A DNA stretch of 64,000 nucleotides from a virus. Lineage: Duplodnaviria; Heunggongvirae; Uroviricota; Caudoviricetes. The notes beneath the pieces are model-generated. The model was given only the letters and a program-made list of their open reading frames with translations. It was not told the origin of the DNA and did not search any database. Where the stretch lies: the IMG/VR virus record IMGVR_UViG_3300048850_000049, positions 55,864 through 119,863 of that record. One strand, 5' to 3'. The position numbers and the translations under genes were made by a program. Below are positions 1,343 to 58,513 of this stretch, piece by piece. Positions within the stretch are counted from its first letter, which is position 1; each line of letters starts with the position of its first letter.

Positions 1343-1394
1343 AGTAAGGAAGCACTTACTTCCTGCCGCGTTCCAATGACGATCTCGCTATAAC
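1343..1394 (+). promoter_or_regulatory. Phage promoter class (palindrome GTAAGGAAGCACTTACTTCC, -35-like CTGCCGCGTTCCAATG, -10-like CGCTATAAC)
   Basis: Motif instance upstream of gene 1404. Confidence 0.5.
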
Positions 1395-4873: not shown

Positions 4874-5974
4874 TCAATGAGCCCTCCTTCGCCGCATGTA
4901 TCTCACGACTTCGGCGAGGTCGATCTGCCCGCGTTCGATCATCCGGACGTAATTTCGGTAGTATCCGCCTGGATTCTTGATCTTCATCGGCCCCGCCTGG
5001 TCCGCGGAATAGATTTCAAGCACCACAAAGAAGGCCGCGGCCGCTCGCATCGGCCCAATTTTCTCGACAGCCTCATCCCAGGCACTCCGGTGTATCCCAA
5101 TCGCGCCTCGCAAACCGGCCGCGGCCGATAGAAGTTCTCTATCGTTGGTGATCGTGTCGGTGTAACTCATTGCATCAGGGCAGGCAGCGCACAAATCTGG
5201 CAAGTTGATTTCGGATTCATTATCTCTTTGCCGTTTGTCACAAGACTGGTCAGGAGAATCTTTGTTGTTCTCAATGAGACGGCAGTTTTTGCCGCCACAG
5301 GCGGCATTATATTGATCCTCAAGGGTAGTTTTCAGACTTTGCCATAGAGAAAGCACAGGCTCGACCGGCTGCGATGACGTTCTACGCGGGGAGAGGGCGC
5401 TCAATCGCTCAAATTCGATCGTGAGCGCGTTCATATCGATGTTCTGACCGAGTGCGTCAAGCGCGCCCAGAAGCTCCTGAGAAGCTCTCCTGCAGATCGT
5501 AATCTGATCGAACAGAGCCATCCGCGCTCGCTGCAACTCCCGGATCGCATCGGTGCGCGCCTGCAGCTCATCTTTACGCGCCAGGAGGGGGGAGAGATCG
5601 AAGCCATAGGCATCAAGAATCTGTCCCTGCTTTGAGCGCACAGCGAAACGTTTGCCATTGGCGCTGTCTCGTGCAAGCACGCATCCTGCTCGGATCAGTT
5701 CACCCACGGCATACCTGATCGCGCGGTCGGAGAGTCCCGTTCGGTCGGAAAGGAACTCGTTTGACGGCCAGACCAGGTAAAGCCCGTTGACCGGCTCGCG
5801 AAAGAACCCGACCAGCTGCGAAAGGATCGATCTTGCGGAAGGGCGCAGGCCAAGAGCAATGGCTGCCAAGTGCGCGCTTTCAAATAGATCCTTCTTGGTG
5901 CCGGCATCCTCCGGCACGTAGGTATCCGCTGCCGGCGCAACGCGGCGCCAGCCTGAATGTCCCTCAGTTCTCAC
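4874..5974 (-). CDS. RepC-like winged-helix replication initiator / DNA-binding protein
   Basis: WPSNEFLSDRTGLSDRAIRYAVGELIRAGCVLARDSANGKRF and AYGFDLSPL resemble RepC (repABC family) N-terminal HTH motifs as I recall them. Confidence 0.5.
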   Translation of the reverse strand: MRTEGHSGWRRVAPAADTYVPEDAGTKKDLFESAHLAAIALGLRPSARSILSQLVGFFREPVNGLYLVWPSNEFLSDRTGLSDRAIRYAVGELIRAGCVLARDSANGKRFAVRSKQGQILDAYGFDLSPLLARKDELQARTDAIRELQRARMALFDQITICRRASQELLGALDALGQNIDMNALTIEFERLSALSPRRTSSQPVEPVLSLWQSLKTTLEDQYNAACGGKNCRLIENNKDSPDQSCDKRQRDNESEINLPDLCAACPDAMSYTDTITNDRELLSAAAGLRGAIGIHRSAWDEAVEKIGPMRAAAAFFVVLEIYSADQAGPMKIKNPGGYYRNYVRMIERGQIDLAEVVRYMRRRRAH

Positions 5975-6131: not shown

Positions 6132-6323
6132 TTAAGCTCCTAGTTCCTTGCTAAACTCACGCACTGCAATTTTAATCGCCTCAGACTGGTTTGCCGCGCC
6201 GAACTTCTTGGCTACGAGTTCCAGCGCTTTCTGATCATCCGGCGTGAGCCAAACGGTCGTATCGCGCATTCCTTCTTTCCGGCGTCGCTCCCGAGTGAGA
6301 GCCATTCTCTCTTTTGCAGTCAT
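6132..6323 (-). CDS. Ribbon-helix-helix (CopG/Arc-like) DNA-binding protein
   Basis: 63 aa, N-terminal basic beta-strand segment (ERMALTRERRRKEG..TVWLTPDD) then two helices; a bidirectional terminator lies downstream. Confidence 0.55.
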   Translation of the reverse strand: MTAKERMALTRERRRKEGMRDTTVWLTPDDQKALELVAKKFGAANQSEAIKIAVREFSKELGA

Positions 6324-7618: not shown

Positions 7619-7712
7619 CAGGCGGAAGGTCCTTTACGCCGGCGGTATCCACCCGCCGGCAGTGAAAATCAGATAAGAGTTGTTATGGAACTGGCTTGGG
7701 TGGAGTTTCATA

Positions 7713-8300
7713 TCATGGAACCACGATCGACTTTTCCAAGCTTTCCAGTATTGCCTTGTGCCCGTTTATTTGCTTGTTCAAACGAACGATGGTGGTCTCT
7801 TTAATGCTGATGCGAAGAAACTCCACACCGATACAAAAGACGGCCTTGTTGTATTTTACGAAGCCCTTAGACCTAATCTCGTATTCGGGGATTGGCATCT
7901 TTGGACGCTGGAACCGCTCGATTTTTTCGCCGTTATAATTTTCGTGCGCCTTGCGACAGCAGTGCATCGACATAATCAGATCTTTGATGTCCGCTTTTAA
8001 GAAGTCCGCATGTTCCATATCATGAGCAAAGCGGTTTCTTAGCTTTCTGAGGATCCCGATATCCCTAAACTCATCGTCATTTATCAGCCCGAAGGCGCGA
8101 CAAATGCTGGACTTGCCTGAGAAGGTCGACAAAGGTCCATTTGAATCAAAAAGGTCAGTTGTCGCCTTTTGCGACATACCGTTCACCTGGCATTCATAGA
8201 GTAGCATCTGGCGGAGCTCAGCGTCGATTATAGAGGCCGCTAGAATGACGCAGCCACGATCTGACTCTTCCATAAGGTCGTATTTTAGCTCTTCGAACAT
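7713..8300 (-). CDS. HEPN-like (Rx4-6H) protein, Abi/DUF4145-like
   Basis: RKLRNRFAHD motif in a helical 195-aa protein; minority strand; AT-rich island. Confidence 0.5.
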   Translation of the reverse strand: MFEELKYDLMEESDRGCVILAASIIDAELRQMLLYECQVNGMSQKATTDLFDSNGPLSTFSGKSSICRAFGLINDDEFRDIGILRKLRNRFAHDMEHADFLKADIKDLIMSMHCCRKAHENYNGEKIERFQRPKMPIPEYEIRSKGFVKYNKAVFCIGVEFLRISIKETTIVRLNKQINGHKAILESLEKSIVVP

Positions 8301-8402
8301 ACCGGTCTCCGCTCCCCCATCAAAACCCTCTAAGAGCTCCTAGTCTCACATTATGAACAAATTAAAATTCGACAAGGCTTTTGTTTCAATTATGAGTGCA
8401 GA

Positions 8403-8479
8403 AAGTAAGTATGCATTGACTTACTTTTTTTTCAGTGGTCTAACGCTTCCGCTGCGATCCCGTGAGTGTCTCGCTATAA
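8403..8479 (+). promoter_or_regulatory. AAGTAAGT..ACTTACTT palindrome plus T8 (terminator-like), then -35-like GCGATCCCGTG and CGCTATAA
   Basis: Upstream of the XRE regulator gene 8532. Confidence 0.5.
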
Positions 8480-8531: not shown

Positions 8532-8963
8532 ATGGGGATTAAGAACATGACAGCGAAGACAGGAAACCAAACACGGTTTTCCACCTTCATAGAAAAGAAG
8601 CTGATGGAGAGCACAAAGACCCAAAAGGAAATTGCGCAAGCCGTCGGCTACAAGAACCAGAATATGATCACCATGCTTAAGCTTGGTGACGTAAAGCTCG
8701 CTCTCGATCGCGTGCCGGCAATGGCAAAAGCCCTTGATATGGATCCTTTGGATCTTTTCAAAATTGCCCTTACCCAATTCTATGACAACGAGTCCGTCTC
8801 CCTCCTCGTAGGGATCATTGAACGAGGCATTTCTCCGGCCGAGCGTAAGATCCTCGAAACCGTTCGGGAAGCCTCAGGAAGTGATACGCCGGAACTTACC
8901 CCAGAACGAGCCAAAAAGCTCGCGAAGGTCTTCGCCCCTGAAAAGGTGAAGGAGCCTGGATAG
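8532..8963 (+). CDS. XRE-family HTH transcriptional regulator
   Basis: QKEIAQAVGYKNQNMITMLKLGDVKL HTH; preceded by the phage promoter motif and followed by an intrinsic terminator. Confidence 0.6.
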   Translation: MGIKNMTAKTGNQTRFSTFIEKKLMESTKTQKEIAQAVGYKNQNMITMLKLGDVKLALDRVPAMAKALDMDPLDLFKIALTQFYDNESVSLLVGIIERGISPAERKILETVREASGSDTPELTPERAKKLAKVFAPEKVKEPG

Positions 8964-8993
8964 TTCACTCACGACCCACCGCGGTTCAACTGG

Positions 8994-9027
8994 AAGCCTG
9001 CTATAAGCCCAAGCAGGCTTTTCTTTT
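8994..9027 (+). terminator. Intrinsic terminator (GAAGCCTGC..GCAGGCTT plus TTCTTTTG)
   Basis: After the XRE gene stop. Confidence 0.55.
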
Positions 9028-9094
9028 GCGCCGTGACTTAAGTAATTACTGACTTATGCCTGACCACCCCTCCTCGTTCCCCAAGGATTCTACA

Positions 9095-9322: not shown

Positions 9323-9366
9323 GCGCAGAAGTAAGTAATCAAATACTTACAAGGAGTTAGCGAAGC

Positions 9367-11674: not shown

Positions 11675-11709
11675 GCATCCCACATCAGTTTTAAGTAAGC
11701 AATTACTTA
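11674..11709 (+). promoter_or_regulatory. Promoter variant (TTGCATCCCACATC .. TTTTAAG) plus palindrome TAAGTAAGCAATTACTTA
   Basis: Upstream of cobS 11750. Confidence 0.45.
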
Positions 11710-11749: not shown

Positions 11750-13054
11750 ATGAACCAGGTAGTTGAAACTGGTGCAGTCACCGCTGCACCGGACGGGAAG
11801 ATTTTGTGCCATATCGATAACGTTCGCGTTCACTCGATCCAGTCGCACATCCAGAAAAACCATAAGGGCTGGACGATCGAAAAGTATCAGGCCGATTTTC
11901 CTGGTGAACCGATTCTGTCGGACACTGCAAAAACGCTGCTCGCCAAGCGTGAGCAGGAAATGAGCGCCGCGGCTAGTGCTGCGCCGGCCGCTGCATCAGT
12001 TCAGGCGCAGATGGTCGCCGACGCGACCGGCATGTCCGCTCCCCAGGTCATCGTCAATCAAGCGTTCTTCCACGATCTATTCGAACTTGGCGCTGCACCT
12101 TCTGCGCTCTCGACCAAGGGTCAGCCCATCCCGGTCAAGACGCTCTCCGGGCATGACAGCCTCTCGGCCGATTACCTGCCCGAGATCGACAAGGCGTATG
12201 TGTTCAACATTGATCTTCTCAAGAAGGTCATTATCGGCTTGGAACTGAATATTCCCTCCTATCTATGGGGCTATCACGGCACCGGCAAGACGACGCTCCT
12301 GCAGCAGGCTGCAGCGCGCACCCGCCGTCCGTTCATGCGCGTCCAGCATACGATCAATATGCAGGAGTCGGACGTTCTTGGTCAGTGGACCGTGCGTTCG
12401 CGGCCCGTTGAGGTGGAGCAAATCGACCAGACCGGTGTCAAGCACATGGTTGTTCAGCAGCAGTCCGTCACCGAGTTCCAGCTTGGACCGTTGCCGCTCG
12501 CGATGATCAACGGCTGGGTCTACTGCGCCGATGAATACGATTTCGCGATGCCGTCTGTAACTGCGGTCTATCAGCCGGTTCTCGAAGGCCAGGCGCTGAT
12601 CATCAAGGATGCTCCTGCACACTTCCGCAAGATCGTCCCGCATCCGAACTTCCGCTTCGTTGCAACCGGCAACACCAACGGCATCGGTGACGAAACCGGT
12701 CTCTATCAAGGCACGCTTGTGCAGAACGCAGCCAACTATTCCCGCTTCGGCATCACTGTCGAGGTCGAATACATGGAAGCGAAGATCGAACAGGCGATCC
12801 TCACCTCCAAGACCGGCATCGACGCGGCGAACGCCTCGAAGATCGTCAAGATGGCGAATGAGGTGCGCAAGATGTTCCGCGATGGCAAGATCACCATGAC
12901 GATCTCGCCGCGTGAGCTGCTCCGCTGCGCTTCGCTCGGGATCGCTTACGGCGGTAACTGGACGCTCGGTATGGAGCTCGCTTTCGCAAACCGTCTGTCG
13001 CGCGTCGATAAGAAGGTTGTCCAGGAATACATGCAGCGGGTGTTCGGATCTTGA
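11750..13054 (+). CDS. cobS: CobS-like AAA+ ATPase (AAA_5/MoxR type)
   Basis: Walker A GYHGTGKTTLL; follows the vWA partner directly; RBS AGAGGGAA. Confidence 0.6.
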   Translation: MNQVVETGAVTAAPDGKILCHIDNVRVHSIQSHIQKNHKGWTIEKYQADFPGEPILSDTAKTLLAKREQEMSAAASAAPAAASVQAQMVADATGMSAPQVIVNQAFFHDLFELGAAPSALSTKGQPIPVKTLSGHDSLSADYLPEIDKAYVFNIDLLKKVIIGLELNIPSYLWGYHGTGKTTLLQQAAARTRRPFMRVQHTINMQESDVLGQWTVRSRPVEVEQIDQTGVKHMVVQQQSVTEFQLGPLPLAMINGWVYCADEYDFAMPSVTAVYQPVLEGQALIIKDAPAHFRKIVPHPNFRFVATGNTNGIGDETGLYQGTLVQNAANYSRFGITVEVEYMEAKIEQAILTSKTGIDAANASKIVKMANEVRKMFRDGKITMTISPRELLRCASLGIAYGGNWTLGMELAFANRLSRVDKKVVQEYMQRVFGS

Positions 13055-13056
13055 GT

Positions 13057-13710
13057 ATGACGCAGTATCGCGATCCGAAGGAAAGCCGCGCCCAGATTAA
13101 GGCTTTCGCTCACAAGGTTCTCCGCCGGGTGCATTCACTCGGCGCGAGGACGCAGACACTGGACGATGTTGAGGGCGAATTGTGGGTAGCATGGTGCCTC
13201 GCCTGTGAACGCTTCAATCCGGAAGCAGGCTGCGCCTTCTCGACCTATCTCTACACGGGTATGCGCCGGCACATTAATCGCTGGATCGAAAAGAATTTCG
13301 AGCGCTTCCACGATGAGACGGTCGCCGCGTCCCTAGACGCTTCCTATGGGTCAGAGATGTCTGAGGATGGTTCGGGCTCGACGCTCGGCGAGGCAGTCGC
13401 TGACACGCATATGCGTCAAGACCAGGAATACGAGCAGAAGGATTGCTTCGCTTACGCCCTCACCCGGTTGTCTGACCGCGCCAAGATGTTCCTGACCTTC
13501 CTTAAGGATCATCCGCCCGAGCTGATGGCGCAGATGAAGGATCTCGAAGCGAAAGCGAAGCACGCGAAGGAACTTGGCGTCACCTATGCCATGCCCAACC
13601 GTCTCACCAGCTTCATGATCTTCGATTTCATGGGCGCTACTCGCGTCGAACGGAAGCAAATTATGGACGAGGTTGCCCAGGTGGGGCAGCTGATTTCGAA
13701 CCAGGGTTAA
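13057..13710 (+). CDS. Sigma-70 family protein (region 2-like)
   Basis: ERFNPEAGCAFSTYLYTGMRRHINRWIEK resembles sigma region 2.1-2.4 (FNPE.G..FSTY....IR..I); start overlaps the cobS stop. Confidence 0.55.
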   Translation: MTQYRDPKESRAQIKAFAHKVLRRVHSLGARTQTLDDVEGELWVAWCLACERFNPEAGCAFSTYLYTGMRRHINRWIEKNFERFHDETVAASLDASYGSEMSEDGSGSTLGEAVADTHMRQDQEYEQKDCFAYALTRLSDRAKMFLTFLKDHPPELMAQMKDLEAKAKHAKELGVTYAMPNRLTSFMIFDFMGATRVERKQIMDEVAQVGQLISNQG

Positions 13711-18299: not shown

Positions 18300-18866
18300 A
18301 TGACGACTCCGACGACGGCCGACGCCGCAAAGGAAGTTACGACCTATCCGGTCAGGGACTTTCTCGACGCTCATCAATTGAAGAAGGATCTCGCCTTCTC
18401 TCCCAACAACCTGACGGATGCCATGATTCAGCAGGCGTCGATGTTCTCGCATTATGGCGTGCTTGCGGCCGACGCATCCCGTCAGGTCGACGTGGTGAAG
18501 ATGCTGCTTGAGAATACCGAGGCAGCAGTTTCCCAGATCATCCGCGATGAAGTGGCAAAGGCCGGCGAAAAGGTGACTGAGGCCGGAATCGCAACCAAGA
18601 TCGCCCGTCATCAGCGCGTCGTATCGATGAAGAAGGCTTTGAACGAAGCCAAGCGCATCGAAGCCATCGGCAAGACCGCAGTTGAGTCCTTCCGGCACCG
18701 GCGTGACATGCTGGTGCAGCTCGGGCTCATCAGCCGTGAAGAAATGAAGGGTGAGCTTCGGATCGGCGAAAAGTCGGCCCGTGAACAGGCGGCCGAGACG
18801 TCCAAGGAGCTTGCTCTTTCGCGCCTTGCCCGGAAGAACACCGTAAGCGAAAATTCTGACAATTAA
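18300..18866 (+). CDS. Hypothetical protein
   Basis: Preceded by the GCTATAA promoter motif and an RBS. Confidence 0.45.
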   Translation: MTTPTTADAAKEVTTYPVRDFLDAHQLKKDLAFSPNNLTDAMIQQASMFSHYGVLAADASRQVDVVKMLLENTEAAVSQIIRDEVAKAGEKVTEAGIATKIARHQRVVSMKKALNEAKRIEAIGKTAVESFRHRRDMLVQLGLISREEMKGELRIGEKSAREQAAETSKELALSRLARKNTVSENSDN

Positions 18867-18867
18867 G

Positions 18868-18915
18868 TGCAATCCCTTTCATTTTGCGCTATAAAGTAAG
18901 TAAGCACTTACTTAG
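18868..18915 (+). promoter_or_regulatory. Promoter (GTGCAATCCC .. TTTGCGCTATAA) plus palindrome AGTAAGTAAGCACTTACTTAG
   Basis: Upstream of gene 18943. Confidence 0.55.
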
Positions 18916-19222: not shown

Positions 19223-19279
19223 TGCGATCCCATGCCGAGGTCGCTATAAGTGAATTAGCTAAATAGCTATCTAGCTATG
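19223..19279 (+). promoter_or_regulatory. Promoter (TGCGATCCCATG .. CGCTATAA) plus a second operator type TTAGCTAAATAGCTATCTAGCTA
   Basis: Upstream of the SSB gene; the same TAGCTA-repeat operator recurs at 54861. Confidence 0.55.
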
Positions 19280-20495: not shown

Positions 20496-21446
20496 ATGTC
20501 CAAGAATTACATGCTGGTCGATGGCAACTCGCTGGGCCACTTTCACAATAACGCCGCTAGGCTGTCGATCGGCGAAATGCAGGTCCAGGCGATCTTCGGC
20601 TTTCTTCGCGCGCTGAGACAGCAGGTCGCGAACTATCAGAATTACACTCCGGTCGTCCTTTGGGATGGTGCGTCGTGGCGCAAGCTCATGTTCGCTGCCT
20701 ACAAGGAGAACCGCGACAAAAAGGAAACGAAGAACGAAGTAAAAATGCAAGCCATGAAGGACGCTTACAAGCTCCAGGTGCCATACATCAAGAAGGCTTT
20801 GCGTTTCCTCGGCATTCCCCAGGTCTGGGCCCTCAATATGGAAGCCGATGATCTCGGCGCCATCCTGACCGACCGTTACACCGCATCCGGCGCGAAGATC
20901 ATTCTTCTGACCGGCGATAAGGACTGGCTGCAGCTGGTTGGACCGGGTGTTGTCTGGCGCGACTTCGCCAATGATCGGCTGGTCAATGAGAAGAACTTTG
21001 CGGAATTCACCGGCGTCGACACCATCCGGCAGTTCATCGAGGTCAAGGCTCTAGCTGGCGACATGGGCGACAATATTGCTGGCGTAGGTGGCATCGGTCA
21101 GAAGGGCGCGGTTGATTTCATCAAGGAATATGGCTCCGTCGCCAACTTTACCAATGGCTGCATTCTCGAAAAGTCCATCGATGTCAGCAAGTTGCCGAAG
21201 AAGTATCGGAACTTGGTTGAAGATGAGGATAAGGCGATCACGTTCAATCGCAACATCGACCTGATGGACCTTCGCACCACGATGCGTCCCGCGCCCGTCA
21301 ACCTGCAGATCGATAAGGGCACGCCCGACAAGGAGAAGTTCCAGACGTTCTGCGACCTGCTCCTTTTCAAGTCGATCACCCAGGAGTTCGAGGAATGGCT
21401 CCGCGTATTCCCGCATTTCCGCGAGCAGTTCTCGCTCGCCGCTTAG
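20496..21446 (+). CDS. 5'-3' exonuclease / flap endonuclease (FEN, RNase H-like)
   Basis: LVDGNSLGHF and LLTGDKDWLQLV motifs typical of Pol I-type 5' nucleases. Confidence 0.8.
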   Translation: MSKNYMLVDGNSLGHFHNNAARLSIGEMQVQAIFGFLRALRQQVANYQNYTPVVLWDGASWRKLMFAAYKENRDKKETKNEVKMQAMKDAYKLQVPYIKKALRFLGIPQVWALNMEADDLGAILTDRYTASGAKIILLTGDKDWLQLVGPGVVWRDFANDRLVNEKNFAEFTGVDTIRQFIEVKALAGDMGDNIAGVGGIGQKGAVDFIKEYGSVANFTNGCILEKSIDVSKLPKKYRNLVEDEDKAITFNRNIDLMDLRTTMRPAPVNLQIDKGTPDKEKFQTFCDLLLFKSITQEFEEWLRVFPHFREQFSLAA

Positions 21447-23503: not shown

Positions 23504-23520
23504 GTTCCGCGCACAACCTG

Positions 23521-23575
23521 ACGCATCCCAACTCGTCATTTGCTATAACAAGATTAATCAGTAATTACTTACTTA
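23521..23575 (+). promoter_or_regulatory. Promoter (ACGCATCCCAAC .. TGCTATAA) plus palindrome CAGTAATTACTTACTTA
   Basis: Upstream of gene 23588. Confidence 0.5.
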
Positions 23576-23872: not shown

Positions 23873-24960
23873 TTTTCGCCGTCGTAGCCGACATTCACGC
23901 CCATAACTCGACGGTCTATTCAGGAACCGGCTCCGATGGGATCAACACGCGCCTCGCGCTCATCCTGAAGGAACTGCGCCGGACGGCAGCAACGCTTACC
24001 GCGGCGGGTGGCAAGACCATGTTCATCGCCGGAGACATCTTTCACACGCGCGGCTCGATCGATCCCGAGGTGCTTAATCCGCTGAGGTCGGCAGTTGAGG
24101 AGATCCTCGAAGCAGGAACCGACATCATCGCCATCCCTGGCAATCACGACCTGAAATCCGCAGATAGCCGGGCGCTGTCCTCACAGATCGAGAACCTCGC
24201 CCAGATCTCCATCACGGGCGGTCAGTTCCGGGTGTTCAACCAGGTGACGAGCATCAACATCGGCGACGAGTATTTTGGCTTCGTGCCTTGGCGCTCAAGC
24301 CGCGCCGACTTCCTTGAGGACATCGGCGATCTCTCGGCGCATCCGGCACACAAGAAGATGCACGTTTTCATCCACGCAGGTATCGACGGCGTGCTGTCGG
24401 GAATGCCGGCAAGTGGCCTGACTGACGGCGATCTTGCTGCTTTGGGGTTCAAGCGCATCTATGCTGGTCACTATCACAATCATGTCGTCTTCCCTGGCAG
24501 CAAGGTCGTGTCGGTTGGCGCGACCACGCATCACAACTGGGGCGACGTTGGAACGCGCGCAGGATTCCTCATCGTCGATACCGACAAGGATACGGTCACG
24601 TTTCACGATACGCTGGCGCCGAAGTTCTGTGACCTGACCGGGTTGGATGAGGTCGAGATGGAGCTGGAGTGCAAGGGCAATTACGTGCGCTTCCGTGGCC
24701 CGACCATGACGCAGAATGAGATCAACGAGTTCCGGGACCAGCTCCGCAAGTGGGGCGCACTCGGCGTCTCGATCGAGGTTCCGAAAGCGACGGTTGCAAC
24801 CCGGTCGGCTAGTCCCGTCAAGGGCGTGACGCTTGAGCAGTCCGTCGCGAACTACGTCGATGCCAAGAAGGATATTCCCGCCTCGATCGACAAGGTGCGG
24901 CTCAAGCAGCGCGCGGCCGAAGTCCTCGAACAGTCCAAGCTCGCTTTCGTAGAAGCCTGA
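23869..24960 (+). CDS. sbcD: SbcD/Mre11-like nuclease (gp47-like)
   Basis: Calcineurin-like phosphoesterase motifs DIHAH, GDIFH, GNHD. Confidence 0.75.
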   Translation: MIFAVVADIHAHNSTVYSGTGSDGINTRLALILKELRRTAATLTAAGGKTMFIAGDIFHTRGSIDPEVLNPLRSAVEEILEAGTDIIAIPGNHDLKSADSRALSSQIENLAQISITGGQFRVFNQVTSINIGDEYFGFVPWRSSRADFLEDIGDLSAHPAHKKMHVFIHAGIDGVLSGMPASGLTDGDLAALGFKRIYAGHYHNHVVFPGSKVVSVGATTHHNWGDVGTRAGFLIVDTDKDTVTFHDTLAPKFCDLTGLDEVEMELECKGNYVRFRGPTMTQNEINEFRDQLRKWGALGVSIEVPKATVATRSASPVKGVTLEQSVANYVDAKKDIPASIDKVRLKQRAAEVLEQSKLAFVEA

Positions 24961-28452: not shown

Positions 28453-28499
28453 CGCAGTCCCGATAGATTTGCGCTATAAAGTAAGTAAGCACTTATTTA
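28453..28499 (+). promoter_or_regulatory. Promoter (CGCAGTCCCGAT .. TTTGCGCTATAA) plus palindrome AGTAAGTAAGCACTTATTTAC
   Basis: Upstream of gene 28513. Confidence 0.55.
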
Positions 28500-28512: not shown

Positions 28513-29007
28513 ATGGCAAAAGCAAAAGAGGACCTGAGCCCCGAGGCAAAGAGGATCATGGAAGAGATCGGCAACGAAGTCGTTGCGGCTCTGAAGGGTG
28601 AGTTCTTTGAGGTCGAAGGCGCGCCGATGTCGGTCGTCAAGTATGAGGATAACCGCATTCGTCAAAAGCCTCTCATGCCGACCTGGCTCTTTCAGTTCGA
28701 ATACGCCTACGTCGGCGGAATGGGCCGCATTCAGTTCGGTCTCTCGCCGGAAGACGCGCAGGAATACAAGTTCATCGAAATGAACCCGAAGGAGCTTGAT
28801 CGCGCGTTTCCGCTTGTCGGCGCAGCAGTCGCAAAGCACTACGGCGTTGAAGGTGAGAACCTGAAGATCCTGCTGGACGAAATCTTCGCCAAGCGCATCG
28901 ACACCGTGGCCGCTGCACAGGAGAAGGCGCGTGAAGAGGCTGCTGCATCCTACGAGGCAAATCCGATCTTTGGAGCCTTCTTAATTCCCAACTTTGGAGC
29001 CTTTTAA
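28513..29007 (+). CDS. Hypothetical protein with a tandem C-terminal NPIFGAF-LIPNFGAF tail
   Basis: Promoter plus palindrome upstream; RBS AGGAG; duplicated FGAF tail. Confidence 0.45.
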   Translation: MAKAKEDLSPEAKRIMEEIGNEVVAALKGEFFEVEGAPMSVVKYEDNRIRQKPLMPTWLFQFEYAYVGGMGRIQFGLSPEDAQEYKFIEMNPKELDRAFPLVGAAVAKHYGVEGENLKILLDEIFAKRIDTVAAAQEKAREEAAASYEANPIFGAFLIPNFGAF

Positions 29008-29582
29008 TGGCTAAGATTATGGTCGCAGGGCTCGATGGATCCCTTCGCAACTTTGGTATCGCTCGCATGTGGCTCGATACCGTCACCCTCGATTTGTCGG
29101 TCCAGGATCTGATCCTAATCAAGACCGAAAAGTCCAAGGACAAACAGGTTCGCAGGTCATCAGATTATCTCAGCGCCGCGATCGCGCTTAAGGAAGGCTG
29201 CCAGAAGGCCATGTTGGGTGTCACCACTGCGTTCTACGAGGTTCCGGCAGGTGGTCAGGATTACAACGCCGTCATGGGCTTTGGGATCGTTATCGGCACC
29301 TATGCGAGCCTTGCTGTTCCGGGCGCAGAGGTTTCTCCTGGCGAAACCAAGAAGGCTGCAGTTGGCACGAAGACGGCTTCGAAGCAGGAGATGATTGAAT
29401 GGGCGATGGAGAAGTTTCCCGAGGCACCCTGGCGCACCCGCAAGCTCAAGGGCGAAATCGTGCCGACCAATGACAATGAGCATCTGGCCGACGCTGTGGC
29501 GATTGTCCATGCTGGGATTATGACGCCTAGTTTCAAGCAAACGCTCGCCATCCTGAACCAGAGCTTTCCCATTGCGGCGTAA
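29007..29582 (+). CDS. ruvC: RuvC-like Holliday junction resolvase
   Basis: IMVAGLDGSLRNFGIA (RuvC N-terminal DxG motif) and NDNEHLADAVAIVHAG (RuvC C-terminal catalytic D/E-containing helix). Confidence 0.65.
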   Translation: MAKIMVAGLDGSLRNFGIARMWLDTVTLDLSVQDLILIKTEKSKDKQVRRSSDYLSAAIALKEGCQKAMLGVTTAFYEVPAGGQDYNAVMGFGIVIGTYASLAVPGAEVSPGETKKAAVGTKTASKQEMIEWAMEKFPEAPWRTRKLKGEIVPTNDNEHLADAVAIVHAGIMTPSFKQTLAILNQSFPIAA

Positions 29583-29598: not shown

Positions 29599-29654
29599 CT
29601 AGTAAGTAATCACTTACTTATCTATCCTGTGAACCCAACCATCGTGTTGGGTTC
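29599..29654 (+). promoter_or_regulatory. Operator-type palindrome AGTAAGTAATCACTTACTTA followed by a 9-bp-stem leader hairpin GAACCCAAC-CATCGT-GTTGGGTTC
   Basis: Upstream of the nrdB-nrdA-grx operon; no T-run after the hairpin. Confidence 0.4.
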
Positions 29655-29683
29655 AATCAACTCAAATACCGACGGAACAGACC

Positions 29684-32597: not shown

Positions 32598-32645
32598 TGC
32601 AGTCCCGAGAACATTTCGCTATAAGTTAAGTAAGCACTTACTGAC
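32598..32645 (+). promoter_or_regulatory. Promoter (TGCAGTCCCGAG .. CGCTATAA) plus palindrome GTTAAGTAAGCACTTACTGAC
   Basis: Upstream of gene 32655; overlaps the upstream terminator. Confidence 0.55.
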
Positions 32646-35890: not shown

Positions 35891-35945
35891 TGCGCTCCAA
35901 CGAGCGCATCGCTATAACTCTGAATGTAAGTAAGCACATACTGAC
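35891..35945 (+). promoter_or_regulatory. Promoter (TGCGCTCCAAC .. GCTATAAC) plus an imperfect palindrome
   Basis: Upstream of gene 36056. Confidence 0.45.
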
Positions 35946-37227: not shown

Positions 37228-37285
37228 CTGCCGCATTCCACTTCGACATTTGCTACTTTGAGTAATCAGTAAGCACTTACTTAAC
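37228..37285 (+). promoter_or_regulatory. Promoter variant (CTGCCGCATTCCAC .. TGCTACTTT) plus palindrome AGTAATCAGTAAGCACTTACTTAAC
   Basis: Upstream of the lipoprotein gene 37301. Confidence 0.45.
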
Positions 37286-37587: not shown

Positions 37588-37645
37588 CTACCGCATCCCA
37601 ACAATTGCTGCGCTATAACGATGTCAGTAAGTAGTTACTTAAGAG
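37588..37645 (+). promoter_or_regulatory. Promoter (CTACCGCATCCCAAC .. CGCTATAAC) plus palindrome CAGTAAGTAGTTACTTAAG
   Basis: Upstream of the GHKL ATPase gene. Confidence 0.55.
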
Positions 37646-37651
37646 GCACAA

Positions 37652-40018
37652 ATGCAGGTTTCCACAATCGCAGAGCTTGATACGCACGCCGTTATTGGCG
37701 GTGGGCAAGCCCAGGCTTTCGGAATGTCCGACAGCGCTGAATTCTTCACCGTTCTTTCCGACACCCTTTATCGCGACAAGAAGCGCGCCGTGATCCGCGA
37801 AGTGATCTGCAACGCCCATGATGCTCACGTCATGGTCGGTAAAACCGATGTGCCGCTGGAAATCACGCTCACCGAAAACGAGCTAACCATCAAGGATTTC
37901 GGGCCTGGCATCGCCAAGGACAAGATCGGTCCCGTCTACTGCGTTTATGGCGCATCGACCAAGGTCAAGGATGCAACTCAGACCGGTGGCTTCGGGCTCG
38001 GCTGCAAGGCGCCGTTTGCGTATTCCGACCACTTCACGGTTACGAGCTGCATCGATGGGTTCCGCACGCTTTGGGCGATCTCTCGCGGCGGGGCTGCAAC
38101 CGATGGTAAGCCGGACTTTCGTGCGATGGTGTCCGTGCCCTCGACTGAAACTGGTATCACCGTGTCGATCCCGCTCAAGAACAGCGGCGATGTGCAGGTG
38201 TTTACGACGCTCATCAAGGAAGTGGTCCGCAACGGCGGGATGCTCGCCAAGCTCAATGGCGAACGCCTGGAGCGCTTCGACTACACCGAGGCTCGCAAGA
38301 ATGGTTTCGCAATCGCACCGCGCGGCAGCTACTCGTCATTCCGCGAGTCCCGCGTCTATCTGCTCTACGCGACCGTTCTCTATCCGGTTCTGACGACCGA
38401 TGAAGAGATTATGGCGAAGGTCGACGATTTTGACCGCCTGATCGAAAGCAATGGCCGCGCTGTGCTTATTGCCAAGCCGAACACGATTGGCGTGCAGCCC
38501 TCGCGTGAAGGTCTCTCCTACTCCGAGCTGACGACCGGCACGCTCCACTCTCTGCTCGATCAGGCGATCGCGACGTTGAAGGCGACTGGCCCTCTCATCG
38601 CTCGCAAGATCGTTCGGGCACATGCCAGGTCGATAATGAAGGATCGTTACGCCCTTACGGTCTCATCGCCCACGTCCTCCAATACGCCCTGCCGTGAATT
38701 GCTGTCGGATCCCAAGGTTATTGCTGAACGTGCCGTCCGGGAGCGCCTGTCCAACTACCTTCCGGACGCGCAACGCAGGAAGATTGCGATAAGCGAGATG
38801 GCGAAGAAGTTTCGTGATGATCGCCGCATTTTCAGGCGCGGCGCGGCCGACTATCGGTTCAACCTGGAACGAGAGCGGTTCGATCACTCCCGAAGGCTGA
38901 TTTTGCGCCTGGCTTCGAAGGCAGACGTTCTCGACAACGTGGTTCTTTTCACGAAGGATTCCGGTTACGTCCGCTGGGTAGGTTCCAAGATCGATGAAAA
39001 GCGCTTCAATCGCCCGATGATCCAGCGCTTGATTATCGGACCTTCTCGCAAGCTGGTCGATGAACAGCTTCGCAAGGAGTTCGATAGCAAGAGCCGCTCC
39101 GCCTATGACGATCAATCCAGCGACATCATTCCGGCTCTCATTCTCAACGCGCCGAGCGAGAAGCTGCTTATGTCAGTCCTTGAGATTGCAGAAGCTCTCA
39201 AGATCCCGACGACGCTGTTGGAATTTCCGAAGCGCAAGAAGTCGGCCAAGATTGGTGATCTGTTCACCGGACTGCTCGACCTTACGCACAATTCCAAAAA
39301 CTACACCTGGCGCGCGGTTAAGGCGAATGTGAGTGAGCCGAAGCACTATATACGCGCCTACGGCACGCAGGAGCGCCTTGAGCTAGGTTTTGCCCGTTAC
39401 AGCGAGGACAAGTCCGCGTTCAAGAAGATCGAGAATATGTTTCCCGGCACCGTCGTCGCCTGGACCGTCAAGCAAGAAGCCAAGTTAAAGTCGAAGGGTA
39501 TTCCGAACCTCGACGTGGTGATCGCTAAGGAGCTGAAGGCGCTCGAAAACAGCCGTGAGGTTCAGTATGCGACGATGATGCAGGGTGGTCACTTCATCTC
39601 CTCGCAGGAGTATCGTCACTCCATCTCCGGCAAGATTGCAGTTATGTGTTCGCAGTCCCTGACCATGTGCAAGTTTTTCTTCCCCGATCGCGCCAAGTTG
39701 GGCGACAAGACCGATCGTTTGCACAAGCTCTGCGAAATCGCCGGCATGATCGGCAATGAACGTGGCTATGCGTGTCCAAATGGCACTATCGCCCGCGAGA
39801 CGATGAAGAATATCGCAACGAAGGCGAAGATCACGTTCAAGGACATGATTATGGATAGCAGGGCGGTCGAAAAGAAGTTCGACTACATGCGACTGATCGC
39901 CAACATCAATTACAGCCCGGCCGATGACGAGCAGATCCTCGGCCTCATTAAGTTCCTCGCCAAGCAGGCGAAGGCTGCCTCATCTGCAAACACTGAAACC
40001 CAGAAGGAAGCTGCATAA
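37652..40018 (+). CDS. GHKL-family ATPase (HATPase_c-like N-terminal domain), 788 aa
   Basis: N-box VICNAHDA, G1 KDFGPGI and G2 TGGFGLG motifs at the N-terminus; long uncharacterised C-terminal region. Confidence 0.55.
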   Translation: MQVSTIAELDTHAVIGGGQAQAFGMSDSAEFFTVLSDTLYRDKKRAVIREVICNAHDAHVMVGKTDVPLEITLTENELTIKDFGPGIAKDKIGPVYCVYGASTKVKDATQTGGFGLGCKAPFAYSDHFTVTSCIDGFRTLWAISRGGAATDGKPDFRAMVSVPSTETGITVSIPLKNSGDVQVFTTLIKEVVRNGGMLAKLNGERLERFDYTEARKNGFAIAPRGSYSSFRESRVYLLYATVLYPVLTTDEEIMAKVDDFDRLIESNGRAVLIAKPNTIGVQPSREGLSYSELTTGTLHSLLDQAIATLKATGPLIARKIVRAHARSIMKDRYALTVSSPTSSNTPCRELLSDPKVIAERAVRERLSNYLPDAQRRKIAISEMAKKFRDDRRIFRRGAADYRFNLERERFDHSRRLILRLASKADVLDNVVLFTKDSGYVRWVGSKIDEKRFNRPMIQRLIIGPSRKLVDEQLRKEFDSKSRSAYDDQSSDIIPALILNAPSEKLLMSVLEIAEALKIPTTLLEFPKRKKSAKIGDLFTGLLDLTHNSKNYTWRAVKANVSEPKHYIRAYGTQERLELGFARYSEDKSAFKKIENMFPGTVVAWTVKQEAKLKSKGIPNLDVVIAKELKALENSREVQYATMMQGGHFISSQEYRHSISGKIAVMCSQSLTMCKFFFPDRAKLGDKTDRLHKLCEIAGMIGNERGYACPNGTIARETMKNIATKAKITFKDMIMDSRAVEKKFDYMRLIANINYSPADDEQILGLIKFLAKQAKAASSANTETQKEAA

Positions 40019-41490
40019 TGGCAAACATTCGCATTGCCGCTGCTATCGCAAGTCAGCACGGCATTACGCTCTACCTCGAAAACGGCAAGGAAATGAACCT
40101 GCCGACGACGAGCTGGCGCACCAAGGCTATTCTCGATGATATTCTCAAGCGCCTTTCGGTAGGTGAGATCGTTGAAATCGATCCGGAAACCTATTCGATC
40201 GAGGCTCGCGTCGAGAAGGAAACGAAGGGGTTGCTTCGCTTCACGAAGAAGACCAAGAGCTTCGTAGCCGGTCTGTTCGGCAAGAACGCCGCAAATGACG
40301 ACTTTGTTTCTGTCGTTCTCGCGCCTGCTGATCCGGTCAAGAAGTTCTCTGCATCCGTGGCTCCCGCTGCCGTTAGCGTCCAGGAAGAGGAAACTGAGCT
40401 GGTCGCTATTGTGACGAATAAGGCAACTGGCAAGGAAACCATGATTCCTGGCGTCGCTGCGCTTGAAAAGCACGTCGAGTCCGCCGTCATGAACAACAAT
40501 GTCGCCGGATTGCAGCGCTTCATGGAGCGTCTGGCCTCAATGCAGGCTAAGCGGTCGCACACGGTTCAGGAGCTCTTGCGCTTCATGGAACGCGGTGATC
40601 TTCCGATCGCTGATGACGGCTGCATCGTCGCCTACAAGGTCTTGCAGTCCAGCGGCTCGAATGGCTACTTCGTCGATTGCCACACGAAGCGCATTCAGCA
40701 GCGTGTCGGGTCGAAGGTGCAGCAGGCCGAAAGCCTGATTGACCAGGATAGGCGCCATGAATGCTCCACCGGTCTGCATATCGCCCGCCGTGGTTACTTG
40801 AAGCAGTTTGGCGGTGACATCATCACCATCGTCAAGGTCGCTCCGGAAGATGTGGTTGCAGTTCCGAATTACGACGCCAACAAGATGCGCGCGGCGTCAT
40901 ATCATATCGTCGGGCAGCTTCCGTCTGAAATTCATAGCGTCCTGCGTGCTGACAAGCCGATGACCGGGAACGTGGTCGCGGCAAAGATCCTCGCAGACGT
41001 GATCGCCGGCAACCATATCGGTGTTGTTGAAACGGTCAGCATCACGGAAGCGAATGGGGGAAGCTTCATTGTCACGCCTGTCAGCGACGGTGGAACGTTC
41101 GTGTCGGGCCAGGCAGGCTTCGCCAGGGCGTTGGATGCTCCGGTCGATGGTCTGAAGCCTGCCGACATTCGCGCCGCTGTAGAGGCCAATGTCGCAGCGA
41201 AGAAGGAAGAGATCAAGAAGGTCAAGGCTGTGAAGAGTGCGGCTGAGACCGGCGACCTCGCCGCTGCTCTGAGCGTGTCCGCGGCTCCCGCGAAGGCTAA
41301 GAAGCCGAAGCCTGAACCGAAGAAGAAGTTGGTCGCTACCAAGCCTAACAATCTCGACGCCGAGCAGCTTCCTACGAAGCACCTTCAGGCTCTGGAAATG
41401 CGCAAGAGCGGAATGTCCAACCGTGCGATCGAGGCTGAGCTCCATATCTGCCGCAAGACCTTGAAGAAGCTCTTCGACAAGCACGGCTGA
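40018..41490 (+). CDS. Hypothetical protein with a C-terminal LuxR/GerE-type HTH
   Basis: TAATG coupling to the GHKL gene; C-terminal LQALEMRKSGMSNRAIEAELHICRKTLKKLFDK; internal AAETGDLAAAL motif and a K/P-rich linker. Confidence 0.5.
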   Translation: MANIRIAAAIASQHGITLYLENGKEMNLPTTSWRTKAILDDILKRLSVGEIVEIDPETYSIEARVEKETKGLLRFTKKTKSFVAGLFGKNAANDDFVSVVLAPADPVKKFSASVAPAAVSVQEEETELVAIVTNKATGKETMIPGVAALEKHVESAVMNNNVAGLQRFMERLASMQAKRSHTVQELLRFMERGDLPIADDGCIVAYKVLQSSGSNGYFVDCHTKRIQQRVGSKVQQAESLIDQDRRHECSTGLHIARRGYLKQFGGDIITIVKVAPEDVVAVPNYDANKMRAASYHIVGQLPSEIHSVLRADKPMTGNVVAAKILADVIAGNHIGVVETVSITEANGGSFIVTPVSDGGTFVSGQAGFARALDAPVDGLKPADIRAAVEANVAAKKEEIKKVKAVKSAAETGDLAAALSVSAAPAKAKKPKPEPKKKLVATKPNNLDAEQLPTKHLQALEMRKSGMSNRAIEAELHICRKTLKKLFDKHG

Positions 41491-41521: not shown

Positions 41522-41568
41522 AGCACTCCCTCGACTTGCGCGCTATAAAGTAAGTAAGCACTTAATTA
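41522..41568 (+). promoter_or_regulatory. Promoter (GCACTCCCTCGAC .. GCGCTATAA) plus palindrome AGTAAGTAAGCACTTAATTAT
   Basis: Upstream of the RNA ligase gene. Confidence 0.55.
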
Positions 41569-42880: not shown

Positions 42881-42900
42881 CATAAGTAAGAAAATACTTA
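42853..42900 (+). promoter_or_regulatory. Promoter (CATGCTTCCGTC .. AGCTATAAC) plus palindrome TAAGTAAGAAAATACTTA
   Basis: Overlaps the 3' end of the HD-domain gene; upstream of 42914. Confidence 0.5.
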
Positions 42901-45686: not shown

Positions 45687-45743
45687 TAGGCCGCTACGCA
45701 AAGCGGGCGGTGAATCCCACCAGGTTCATCGCCCGCTCACTAC

Positions 45744-45795
45744 CTACCGCACTCCAAATTCAATCGCGCTATAAACTAAGTAAGAAATTACTTAG
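45744..45795 (+). promoter_or_regulatory. Promoter (CTACCGCACTCCAA .. CGCGCTATAAAC) plus palindrome CTAAGTAAGAAATTACTTAG
   Basis: Ends 1 nt before ATG 45797. Confidence 0.55.
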
Positions 45796-50150: not shown

Positions 50151-50185
50151 TTTGCGCTATAAGATCAGTAAGAACTTACTTACTC
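50133..50185 (+). promoter_or_regulatory. Promoter (GATGCGCTTCCG .. TTTGCGCTATAAG) plus palindrome CAGTAAGAACTTACTTACTC
   Basis: Upstream of gene 50200 and the nadM-nadV genes. Confidence 0.55.
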
Positions 50186-52908: not shown

Positions 52909-52950
52909 AGCACTCCGTCACGATCAACGCTATAAGTAATTCATTACTTA
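52909..52950 (+). promoter_or_regulatory. Promoter (AGCACTCCGTCAC .. CGCTATAAG) plus palindrome AGTAATTCATTACTTA
   Basis: Upstream of the small-TM/SPFH module. Confidence 0.5.
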
Positions 52951-54860: not shown

Positions 54861-54879
54861 ATAGCTATTTAGCTAGTAT
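54861..54879 (+). promoter_or_regulatory. TAGCTA-repeat operator ATAGCTATTTAGCTAGTAT (second copy of the 19255 element)
   Basis: Upstream of gene 55015. Confidence 0.4.
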
Positions 54880-56475: not shown

Positions 56476-56727
56476 ATGAATGTTATCAACCGACAGCGGC
56501 TCGAGTTTGCAGCCGCTGGGTTTCTCAATGAGATGCGCAAGCAATGGGTGCAGATGCACCCCGAGGATCCCTGCCCCATTAAGTCTCTTGCTGAATATCC
56601 GCCGGCGCAACGTTCTGCTCTGATGGCCGGTATTCAAAAGTCGATCCAGTTCGCCGGCACTGACACCGATGTCGCCTTTGCGGCCTGGGTAGAGCGAAGG
56701 GAAGAAGAGAAGGCGCGCACGACCTGA
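56476..56727 (+). CDS. Hypothetical protein
   Basis: ORF on the coding strand. Confidence 0.4.
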   Translation: MNVINRQRLEFAAAGFLNEMRKQWVQMHPEDPCPIKSLAEYPPAQRSALMAGIQKSIQFAGTDTDVAFAAWVERREEEKARTT

Positions 56728-56774
56728 CGCAATCCCATTTTCTTTTGCGCTATAACATAAGTAATCGCTTACTT
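56726..56774 (+). promoter_or_regulatory. Promoter (ACGCAATCCCAT .. TTTGCGCTATAAC) plus palindrome TAAGTAATCGCTTACTTA
   Basis: Upstream of gene 56793. Confidence 0.55.
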
Positions 56775-56792
56775 ACTGCAGGAGACTCCCCC

Positions 56793-58452: not shown

Positions 58453-58513
58453 CTCACTTCCAAGCGCAAGCCGAATTCTTTTGCGCTATAAGTTAAGTAA
58501 TTGCTTACTTATA
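58453..58513 (+). promoter_or_regulatory. Promoter (CTCACTTCCAAGCGC .. TTTGCGCTATAAG) plus palindrome GTTAAGTAATTGCTTACTTATA
   Basis: Upstream of gene 58561. Confidence 0.55.

Follow-up and report, generated by a model that had tools for sequence, protein, structure and literature searches.

A dispersed 18-bp palindrome, probably a repressor operator, at the promoters of a phage-plasmid group

A 64,000-nucleotide stretch of a Caudoviricetes genome (IMG/VR record IMGVR_UViG_3300048850_000049, positions 55,864 to 119,863; hereafter, the window) contains 20 copies of an 18-bp palindrome, all of them intergenic and 14 of them located after a GCTATAA-like -10 promoter element. The complete genomes of two relatives, the Rhizobium phage RHph_X66 (X66) and the Sinorhizobium plasmid pLM21S1, carry 41-43 copies each at no more than one mismatch. 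The palindrome is probably the double-stranded DNA operator of a phage repressor. To judge from their distribution, the sites would make up a dispersed repressor-operator regulon of a temperate phage, hitherto undescribed in this group.

Geometry and copy number of the palindrome

In the window, AAGTAA-N4-TTACTT has 18 matches with at most one mismatch, compared to 0.02 expected from dinucleotide-preserving shuffles, and the degenerate form ARTMA-N4-TKAYT has 17 matches, compared to 0.34 expected; the total of 20 includes two weaker copies (8406 and 35927) that were recognised via their orthologues. The full unit is T-AAGTAA-N4-TTACTT-A, with the flanking T on the left and the flanking A on the right present at nearly all sites, and the consensus, T-A-A-G-T-A-A-K-Y|R-M-T-T-A-C-T-T-A, is two-fold symmetric. 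The centres of the two half-sites lie ~11 bp apart (the G-to-C distance is 11 bp), that is, one helical turn, and this spacing is constant.

A sequence-only reading of the window had listed sites at 18895, 28480, 32625, 37626, 41548, 42883, 45776, 50166, 52935, 56757, 58492, 1343 and 8403, all of which are genuine. It had also described 8-bp arms around a spacer of two to six nucleotides, whereas the arms are 7 bp long (T-AAGTAA), with exact 8-bp arms occurring only once, and the centre is 4 nt long at every site, differing only in sequence. The impression of an N2-N6 spacer comes from sites where G...C or T...A at the two ends of the centre happens to lengthen the arms. The site at 8403, a seeming exception with an 8-nt centre, resolves to an ordinary N4 site with two mismatches (8406-8423) inside longer periodic arms. 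The literal form TAAGTAAG-N2-8-CTTACTTA has a single match in the window, at 18897, and was replaced for counting by AAGTAA-N4-TTACTT. The sites in the window are the following (gap, nucleotides between the -10 element and AAGTAA):

1345..1362: site tAAGGAAgcacTTACTTc, one mismatch; ~25 nt upstream of the -10 at 1387; orthologues at X66 53444 and pLM21S1 114629
8406..8423: variant site tAAGTATgcatTGACTTa with hybrid AGTAA/AGTCA halves; inside the palindrome 8402-8427, upstream of the promoter (-10 at 8473) of the XRE regulator gene; the orthologues (X66 59649, pLM21S1 1689) are likewise hybrid, AAGTAA-N4-TGACTT
9039..9056: hybrid site tAAGTAAttacTGACTTa; directly past the terminator of the XRE gene, no -10 upstream; orthologues at X66 60251 and pLM21S1 2298
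9332..9349: site tAAGTAAtcaaATACTTa; no GCTATAA upstream, Shine-Dalgarno sequence of a CobT-like gene (9367) 2 nt downstream
11692..11709: perfect site tAAGTAAgcaaTTACTTa; 11 nt past the upstream box GCATCCC, in the position of the -10; upstream of a CobS-like gene (11750)
18897..18914: flagged site tAAGTAAgcacTTACTTa; GCTATAA at 18888, gap 3 nt; the orthologous position in phage RHEph10 reads AGTCAGTCAATATTGACTGACT
23558..23575: site tCAGTAAttacTTACTTa; -10 at 23542, gap 10 nt
28482..28499: site tAAGTAAgcacTTATTTa; -10 at 28473, gap 3 nt
29603..29620: perfect site; between 29007..29582 and the ribonucleotide reductase beta gene (29684), no recognisable GCTATAA; kept at X66 80416 and pLM21S1 23394
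32627..32644: site tAAGTAAgcacTTACTGa; -10 at 32618, gap 3 nt
35927..35944: degenerate site tAAGTAAgcacATACTGa, two mismatches; -10 at 35911, gap 10 nt; the orthologue at X66 86536 reads AAGTAAgcacATACTT
37266..37283: site tCAGTAAgcacTTACTTa; variant -10 GCTACTT (37252), gap 8 nt
37624..37641: site tCAGTAAgtagTTACTTa; -10 at 37612, gap 6 nt; upstream of rIIA
41551..41568: site tAAGTAAgcacTTAATTa; -10 at 41542, gap 3 nt
42883..42900: site tAAGTAAgaaaATACTTa; -10 at 42874, gap 3 nt
45777..45794: perfect site tAAGTAAgaaaTTACTTa; -10 at 45768, gap 3 nt
50165..50182: site tCAGTAAgaacTTACTTa; -10 at 50156, gap 3 nt
52933..52950: perfect site; overlaps the -10 itself (GCTATAAGTAA), gap -2; same layout at X66 103197 and pLM21S1 46334
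56758..56775: perfect site tAAGTAAtcgcTTACTTa; -10 at 56749, gap 3 nt
58494..58511: perfect site tAAGTAAttgcTTACTTa; -10 at 58485, gap 3 nt

Distribution across the phage-plasmid group

The window DNA is 76% identical to the Rhizobium phages X66, B1VFA and V1VFA-S and to the plasmids pLM21S1 and pRlX6, and ~70% identical to RHEph10-like phages and to plasmids of Shinella, Pararhizobium and Methylobacterium. The members of this group are siphoviruses of ~115-122 kb that encode RepC (4874..5974 in the window), ParA/ParB, a ribbon-helix-helix (RHH) protein and an XRE regulator; in the literature, they are termed plasmid prophages or called phage-plasmid-like (PMC12509600, PMC4447125, PMC7969092). 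Because pLM21S1 and pRlX6 occur as plasmids (PMC4447125, PMC12509600), a maintenance repressor is to be expected. The papers examined on the group (PMC12509600, PMC4447125, PMC5537653, PMC7969092, PMC9928086) are gene lists that mention neither the palindrome nor the promoters, and in the same papers no lysis-lysogeny circuitry is described for the RHEph10/pLM21S1 group or for the SSU5-like supercommunity of phage-plasmids.

When palindromes are counted de novo, AAGTAA-N4-TTACTT comes out on top in each of the three sequences compared, the window, X66 and pLM21S1, the latter two having 29 perfect copies each. The copies in X66 and pLM21S1 reach into the structural (late) region, where their surroundings differ. 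At orthologous sites, the arm sequence is unchanged while the sequence of the centre differs freely. A scan of IMG/VR with TAAGTAA-N4-TTACTTA yielded mostly single chance matches and a few contigs with multiple hits, and an XRE-based search of the same database supplied 12 useful loci. A Cereibacter plasmid encoding a 44%-identical XRE protein was dropped as a relative, being an ordinary CRISPR-bearing plasmid.

Position of the sites relative to promoter elements

GCTATAA occurs 24 times on the + strand of the window, compared to 2.2 expected. At nine of the 14 promoters at which a site follows this element, the gap to AAGTAA is 3 nt, and at the remaining five it is -2, 6, 8, 10 and 10 nt; 3 nt is also the most common gap in X66 and pLM21S1. 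At the flagged site, for example, 18888-18914 reads GCTATAA-AGT-AAGTAAGCACTTACTTA. Sites without an upstream -10 are those at 9039, 9332, 11692, 29603 and 1345, and the one at 8406 precedes a promoter. The earlier placement of the operator, just past the -10 at about 15 promoters, is too narrow, given that the motif is also found in promoter spacers, upstream of the -35, inside operons and before a tRNA gene. The -10 sequence itself, GCTATAAC/A/G, agrees with the alphaproteobacterial housekeeping -10, for which the consensus is GCTANAWC in Caulobacter and CTATAT in Sinorhizobium. One GCTATAA, at 9000, was rejected as a promoter: it sits in the loop of the hairpin of the terminator (8985-9030, AGCCTGC...GCAGGCT followed by a T run) that ends the XRE gene, an arrangement that is kept in X66 and pLM21S1.

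The GCTATAA promoters have further conserved features. A box GC(R)CA-n-TCC(C) lies at a fixed distance of 11-12 nt before GCTATAA at ~20 promoters of the window (for example, 18843-18894, 45723-45774 and 56704-56755), and many of the GCTATAA promoters also contain a conserved stretch CGCTCAC-n3-ACCTGAC, so that the whole promoter spans ~50 bp, without a TTGACA-like -35. In Methylobacterium, the -10 is identical and the upstream box is different (GAAACGCCGC). The window encodes a protein with sigma-70 region 2 (13051..13710), and promoters that combine the upstream box with GCTATAA may be the class that is read by this putative phage sigma factor.

The late region of X66 shows the palindrome in other contexts. 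A consensus promoter scan of 20 kb of this region predicted four sigma70-like promoters, and all four coincide with sites. In three of these (20749-20777, 24533-24561 and 38069-38097), the palindrome takes up the spacer, 17 nt long, that separates TTGCAA or TTGCTA from TACAAT or TATTAT; in the fourth (31346-31375), it begins right after the -10, and a second copy lies just upstream of the -35. The promoter of the major capsid gene is flanked by two sites, at 23516 and 23571. These late-promoter arrangements are kept in pLM21S1. Elsewhere, a copy at X66 33056 lies inside the tail operon, between a stop codon and the next ribosome-binding site, before the tape-measure gene, and another copy (X66 8664) lies ahead of a tRNA-Met gene, which argues that translation is not the target of the sites.

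A separate peculiarity is observed after the major capsid gene of X66 (locus L001, 24533-24590) and RHEph10 (L126, 469-520), where a sigma70-like promoter that contains a site (TTGCTA-N17-TATTAT) gives way, within 2 nt, to a strong terminator hairpin (GGGCGGGA...TCCCGCCC and a T run), the stem of which includes the predicted transcription start. Transcripts initiated here may evade a terminator that halts those arriving from upstream.

Variation of the half-site between lineages

AGTAA half-sites are characteristic of the window, X66, pLM21S1, Shinella and the IMG/VR loci L144-L152; AGTCA half-sites occur in Methylobacterium (14 of the 15 sites) and in a deep lineage (L153/L154); and half-sites are mixed in RHEph10 and Pararhizobium. 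Perfect AGTCA sites are absent from the AGTAA-type genomes, and vice versa. The half-site type switches in all copies of a genome together, and orthologous positions bear the variant of their own lineage, as in the case of the gene at 18943, where the orthologue in RHEph10 is preceded by AGTCAGTCAATATTGACTGACT. Such concerted change across all copies argues for a common reader rather than for shared descent of promoter cassettes, and suggests that a trans-acting factor reads the sites and co-evolves with them. Given that phages infecting the same host genus, RHEph10 and X66 of Rhizobium, differ in the half-site, the reader appears to be encoded by the phage rather than by the host.

In RHEph10 (L126/L127) and Pararhizobium (L129), the commonest site is asymmetric, gtcAGTAA-atat-TGATTga, with AGTAA promoter-proximal 16 times versus four times in the reverse orientation; several copies in these genomes abut the upstream box (TGATTGCGTCCC). 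The arms also show an internal periodicity, being made of a 4-nt tandem unit, TAAG-TAAG in the window phage (18894-18904, 28479-28489, 50175-50184 and many others) and TCAG-TCAA in RHEph10, so that many sites contain overlapping half-sites 4 bp out of register.

DNA operator or RNA hairpin

The sequence-only reading had proposed a site for a dimeric DNA-binding protein and, alternatively, a hairpin at the 5' end of the transcripts. Under the latter explanation, the palindrome would act as a short, AU-rich stem-loop within 5' leaders and between cistrons, with the stem read by a phage RNA-binding protein or endoribonuclease, and would serve as a processing site, as a stabiliser against RNase E or RNase J, or in translational control. 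We consider such an RNA element, the main rival of the operator, unlikely, although it accounts for part of the observations, and the evidence on the two possibilities is as follows.

The first line of evidence comes from the predicted transcription starts. At the promoters with a 3-nt gap (9 of the 14 in the window), the start predicted from the TATAAN hexamer (+~7 nt) is the fourth or fifth base of AAGTAA, so that, on these predictions, the left arm is not transcribed at the dominant promoter type, and at the spacer-type late promoters no part of the site is transcribed. An RNA hairpin needs the whole stem in the transcript, which the start sites predicted at these promoters do not provide. 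Conversely, the hairpin would be fully transcribed where the gap from the -10 is at least 6-10 nt (23558, 35927, 37266 and 37624 in the window; X66 50963), and in Methylobacterium the predicted start is the first base of the stem; these sites are compatible with an RNA element. The phage also encodes RNA-repair genes (Rnl2-like and RtcB) and, accordingly, does manipulate RNA.

The second line of evidence comes from the centre of the palindrome. Among 74 perfect AGTAA-N4-TTACT sites pooled from the window, X66 and pLM21S1, the centre begins with K in 97% of cases, followed by Y in 82%, R in 85% and M in 89%, which is a self-complementary degenerate rule, and the flanking T (68 of 74) is mirrored by the flanking A (69 of 74). 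Complementarity within individual sites is not enriched: centre positions 1 and 4 are complementary in 38 sites compared to 35.6 expected, and positions 2 and 3 in 15 compared to 27.6 expected. The two-fold rule without an excess of pairing implies a separate constraint on each half, the dyad being occupied by a flexible YR step. This is what would be expected of two independently read half-sites (TAAGTAAKY), whereas a tetraloop would have no reason to obey such a rule.

The third line of evidence comes from the lineages with mixed half-sites. In RHEph10 (35 sites) and the Pararhizobium plasmid (13 sites), AGTAA, AGTCA and AATCA halves occur in almost any combination. Symmetric sites in RHEph10 number 9, compared to 11 expected under independence, and 18 of the 35 sites have an A.G or C.T combination at one arm pair, without within-site compensation. 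The arm changes in Pararhizobium are likewise uncompensated, and many of the sites in these genomes do not fold. Covariation, which had been proposed as the deciding check, is indecisive on its own because the concerted change from A:T to C:G fits both DNA and RNA; within-site independence, symmetry of the centre and strand bias were used in its stead, and the informative outcome is the lack of compensation within sites.

Folding energies point in the same direction. RNA stems at the window sites are weak, at -1.5 to -7.5 kcal/mol, and about one third of the RHEph10 sites fold no better than ~-2 kcal/mol. The ratio of sites with a more stable sense strand to those with a more stable antisense strand is 6:9 in the window, 16:8 in X66, 18:15 in pLM21S1 and 5:6 in Methylobacterium, without systematic sense bias; such bias is absent in four of the six genome types. 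An Rfam 15 scan of the window at the gathering threshold gave no matches, and the site preceding a tRNA gene also fits an RNA element poorly. Taken together, the start inside the left arm, the sites within promoter spacers, the symmetric centre and the lack of compensation in RHEph10 disfavour the hairpin. By these sequence tests, the geometry, the placement in spacers, the two-fold centre and the uncompensated arm changes back a dimeric DNA-binding protein; the sequence-only reading as a whole is partly supported. The palindrome was rejected as an intrinsic terminator, given that the stems are A+U-rich and weak and that there is no T run except at 8427. IHF consensus sites, terminators, N4-type hairpin promoters and ParB centromeres were considered and set aside on grounds of sequence or geometry.

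Candidate binding proteins

The best candidate for the binder of the sites is the XRE regulator:

8532..8963, + strand: XRE/HTH_3 regulator; Pfam HTH_3 at 25.6 bits, above the cut-off; PHROG annotation as transcriptional regulator/repressor

This is the only canonical helix-turn-helix (HTH) regulator that is retained beside RepC in every relative. Its gene is flanked by hybrid AAGTAA-N4-TGACTT sites in the window (8406 and 9039), X66 (59649 and 60251) and pLM21S1 (1689 and 2298), and its own promoter (-10 at 8473), unlike most of its class, has no site covering the start. The recognition helix of the protein opens with residues 41-42 in the HTH_3 alignment; by this alignment and the structure of the 434 repressor, we take them to correspond to Thr27-Gln28 of the latter. 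These two residues track the half-site: they are [K/S/A/N]-N in all genomes with AGTAA sites (three groups with 42-47% mutual identity), E-R in Methylobacterium and E-N in L153, the two lineages with AGTCA sites, which are 33% identical, and [T/S]-Q in RHEph10 and Pararhizobium, where the sites are mixed. A profile scan detected no recognisable peptidase or CI C-terminal domain in the XRE protein, and its sequence has no significant match among solved chains (best E=0.74). The sequence-only reading had named this protein as one of two candidates; the RepC neighbourhood, the flanking variant sites and the helix residues that track the half-site lend it circumstantial support and make it plausible. 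That this particular protein binds the sites is, in our estimate, a tentative proposal with slightly less than an even chance of being correct.

The other candidate in that reading, a "LuxR-HTH" protein at 40018..41490, did not hold up. The product is an RIIB homologue (PHROG 2886, E=5e-113; 63% identical to the annotated RIIB of X66), and its C-terminal HTH-like tail scores weakly, at 17.8 bits compared to a cut-off of 27. This tail is identical in the window and in RHEph10, which differ in the motif, and was rejected as the binder. The tail, of ~35 residues (41380-41487), has the look of a LuxR or sigma region 4 HTH (SNRAIEAELHICRKTLKKLF), which is unexpected on RIIB; it is kept in X66, pLM21S1 and RHEph10 and is present in an altered form in Methylobacterium. 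The RHH (CopG-like) protein at 6132..6323 was rejected as well because the window and X66, which have the motif in common, share only 20% identity in this protein.

It appears improbable that the DNA operator is read by some other protein, be it another phage product (for instance, either of the two ParB-like proteins, as a global regulator in the manner of KorB) or a conserved factor of the host. There are candidates for this role, in that relatives encode ParA, two proteins with ParB N-terminal domains and the RHH protein, and the recurrence of the TAAGTA half-site in an SSU5-like plasmid of Klebsiella (see below) indicates that the recognising factor is ancient. However, ParB-type centromeres are normally clustered, unlike these sites, which are spread over ~40 promoters; a host factor is difficult to reconcile with the different half-sites in RHEph10 and X66, phages of the same host genus; the RHH protein has a different beta-strand in genomes with the same motif; the RIIB tail is the same in genomes with different motifs; and the XRE helix alone tracks the motif.

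The least probable explanation, and in our view a very remote one, is that there is no trans factor at all, the palindrome being intrinsic to a duplicated promoter cassette similar to the PeSL promoter-stem-loop cassettes of T4-type phages, as an initiation-region element or a recombination hotspot for module shuffling: the fixed 3-nt gap at most middle promoters, the many near-identical copies, including those with GCAC centres, and the 4-nt periodicity of the arms (AAGT AAGT AAG), suggestive of slippage, would fit a cassette, but the palindrome accompanies at least two unrelated promoter types in several registers (past the -10, across it, within the spacer or ahead of the -35) or lacks a promoter, and from one lineage to the next all copies change their sequence together, which demands a shared reader.

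A proposed regulatory mechanism

In the mechanism that we favour, a phage-encoded dimeric repressor, with the XRE protein (8532..8963) as the best candidate, would bind the 18-bp sites. The copies would cover what RNA polymerase must occupy, namely, the start region after the -10, the spacer between the -35 and the -10, or the promoter flank, and the bound repressor would either exclude RNA polymerase or block its escape. Two promoter classes would be targeted, the phage-specific one with the upstream box and GCTATAA, and the sigma70-like late one; at the copies inside operons, the bound protein could act as a roadblock. Thus, a single protein could switch ~40 transcription units together, and the outcome would be either that the plasmid-prophage state is held or that a global temporal switch is made in the course of lytic growth.

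Several observations weigh against this repressor-operator mechanism. The transcription starts were deduced from canonical geometry, for a promoter class that has an unusual upstream box and may depend on the phage sigma factor. Many sites, including promoter-less ones inside operons (9332 and 29603; X66 33056), lie 2-15 nt upstream of a Shine-Dalgarno sequence, and sites in general are nearly always a few nucleotides upstream of one, promoter-less intercistronic positions included; an RNA element would likewise be expected just upstream of the Shine-Dalgarno sequence. RHEph10 shows a mild sense bias, with 21 sites folding better in the sense strand versus 12 in the antisense strand; G.T combinations exceed A.C ones in this phage, 16 to 6, and its commonest asymmetric site folds in a shifted register with two G.U pairs. 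As for the XRE protein, the correlation between its helix and the half-site amounts to about five or six lineages, uncorrected for phylogeny. A GTDB search with a four-sequence XRE alignment found only chromosomal homologues, at 34-41% identity, with no such sites nearby. XRE would repress promoters of the class to which its own promoter belongs, which calls for an explanation if this class depends on the phage sigma factor. Finally, X66, RHEph10 and B1VFA were isolated as plaque-forming phages.

Other elements in the window and its relatives

A second repeated element consists of two or three TAGCTA palindromes with an 8-bp period (TTAGCTAAATAGCTATCTAGCTA). It is located just past the promoter of the SSB gene and in a few other places (window 19256-19277 and 54862-54875; X66 70489-70510 and 30288-30309; pLM21S1 12777-12798), ranks second among the enriched palindromes of each of the three genomes, and may represent either a centromere-like site or an operator for a different regulator. 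The site at 29603 is followed, upstream of the ribonucleotide reductase beta gene, by a hairpin with a 9-bp stem (29628-29655; GAACCCAAC-catcgt-GTTGGGTTC), which is found as the same structure, with sequence changes, in X66 (80440) and pLM21S1 (23420). Between the RHH and XRE genes, the region 6512-8300 has a low G+C content (51% versus ~56%) and encodes a 368-aa protein that matched no family and, in the opposite orientation, a 195-aa MtlR-like protein, both missing from this position in X66 and pLM21S1; this region may be accessory or defence cargo inserted into the regulatory region.

Breadth and significance

The XRE protein was found by tblastn in 799 plasmids, mostly, SSU5-like phage-plasmids of Klebsiella, Acinetobacter, Enterobacter, Yersinia and Salmonella. 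A plasmid of Klebsiella oxytoca (NZ_OW969661.1; L132) contains nine matches to TAAGTA-N2-TACTTA in 38.6 kb, compared to 0.05 expected; the half-site resembles that of the window, but the halves are 4 bp closer. A zero-spacer variant, GGTAAGTACTTACC, is located directly upstream of the start codon of the XRE homologue, and the gene there is divergent from the replication genes. The palindrome in this plasmid, TAAGTA-N2-TACTTA(CC) (18133, 23031, 26144 and others), often abuts a TATnAT -10. A broader and considerably more speculative generalisation, which we think doubtful on present comparisons, is that XRE is the master immunity repressor of the whole SSU5-like supercommunity, acting via genome-wide TAAGTA-type palindromes, intra-operon roadblocks included, with heteroimmune groups set by the change from A to C in the half-site together with a K/N to E switch in the recognition helix.

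If the operator interpretation is correct, the 18-bp motif maps all repressible transcription units and so provides the first regulatory map for a poorly studied phage-plasmid group, immunity groups become predictable from sequence alone, and the sites with their reader would constitute a repressor-operator pair that is open to testing, with a switch of specificity provided by nature (AGTAA, AGTCA, AATCA), and a symmetric-site counterpart to the asymmetric dispersed operators of P1 and L5. If, instead, the RNA explanation were true, a sequence-specific hairpin would mark almost every mRNA of the phage, which would be more unusual still.

Comparison with known systems

By analogy, the closest counterparts of these sites appear to be the operators of the P1 C1 repressor and the stoperators of phage L5. 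P1 C1 and L5 gp71 keep their prophages silent by a mechanism of the kind proposed here, albeit through asymmetric sites and with unrelated proteins. P1, too, is a phage-plasmid; its single immunity repressor acts at many scattered, promoter-overlapping operators, through which most lytic functions are silenced at once. However, the P1 operators are 17 bp long, asymmetric and present in ~15-20 copies, and C1 is monomeric and lacks the XRE fold, whereas the sites described here are two-fold symmetric, number ~40, and occur also inside operons; there is no sequence relationship between the two. The plasmids RK2/RP4 resemble the present case in that the palindromic operators of KorA and KorB are repeated at many promoters of the plasmid backbone, providing for co-ordinated repression, but there are only 12 KorB or 7 KorA sites, and KorB belongs to the ParB family and also acts at a distance. 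The PeSL cassettes of T4-type phages similarly consist of a promoter and a stem-loop repeated as a unit upstream of many genes; they are regarded as recombination or mobile regulatory cassettes and RNA stem-loops, whereas the palindrome here is independent of the promoter type and is conserved in sequence, not in structure.

With respect to recognition, XRE (HTH_3) dimers of the 434 and lambda type also bind inverted half-sites one helical turn apart, with a flexible, non-contacted centre, and their specificity is set by the first residues of the recognition helix. The lambdoid phages differ in having 3+3 operators at one switch region, compared to the genome-wide set here. The stoperators of Cluster A mycobacteriophages, bound by L5 gp71, are likewise present in tens of copies in short intergenic regions, including promoter-less positions inside operons, and the sequences of the site and the repressor co-vary between immunity groups (PMC6550527). 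Unlike the symmetric sites described here, stoperators are 13-14 bp long, asymmetric and oriented with transcription; such a fixed orientation of an asymmetric site is not seen in the AGTAA-type genomes, and a left/right bias is found in the RHEph10-type genomes only.

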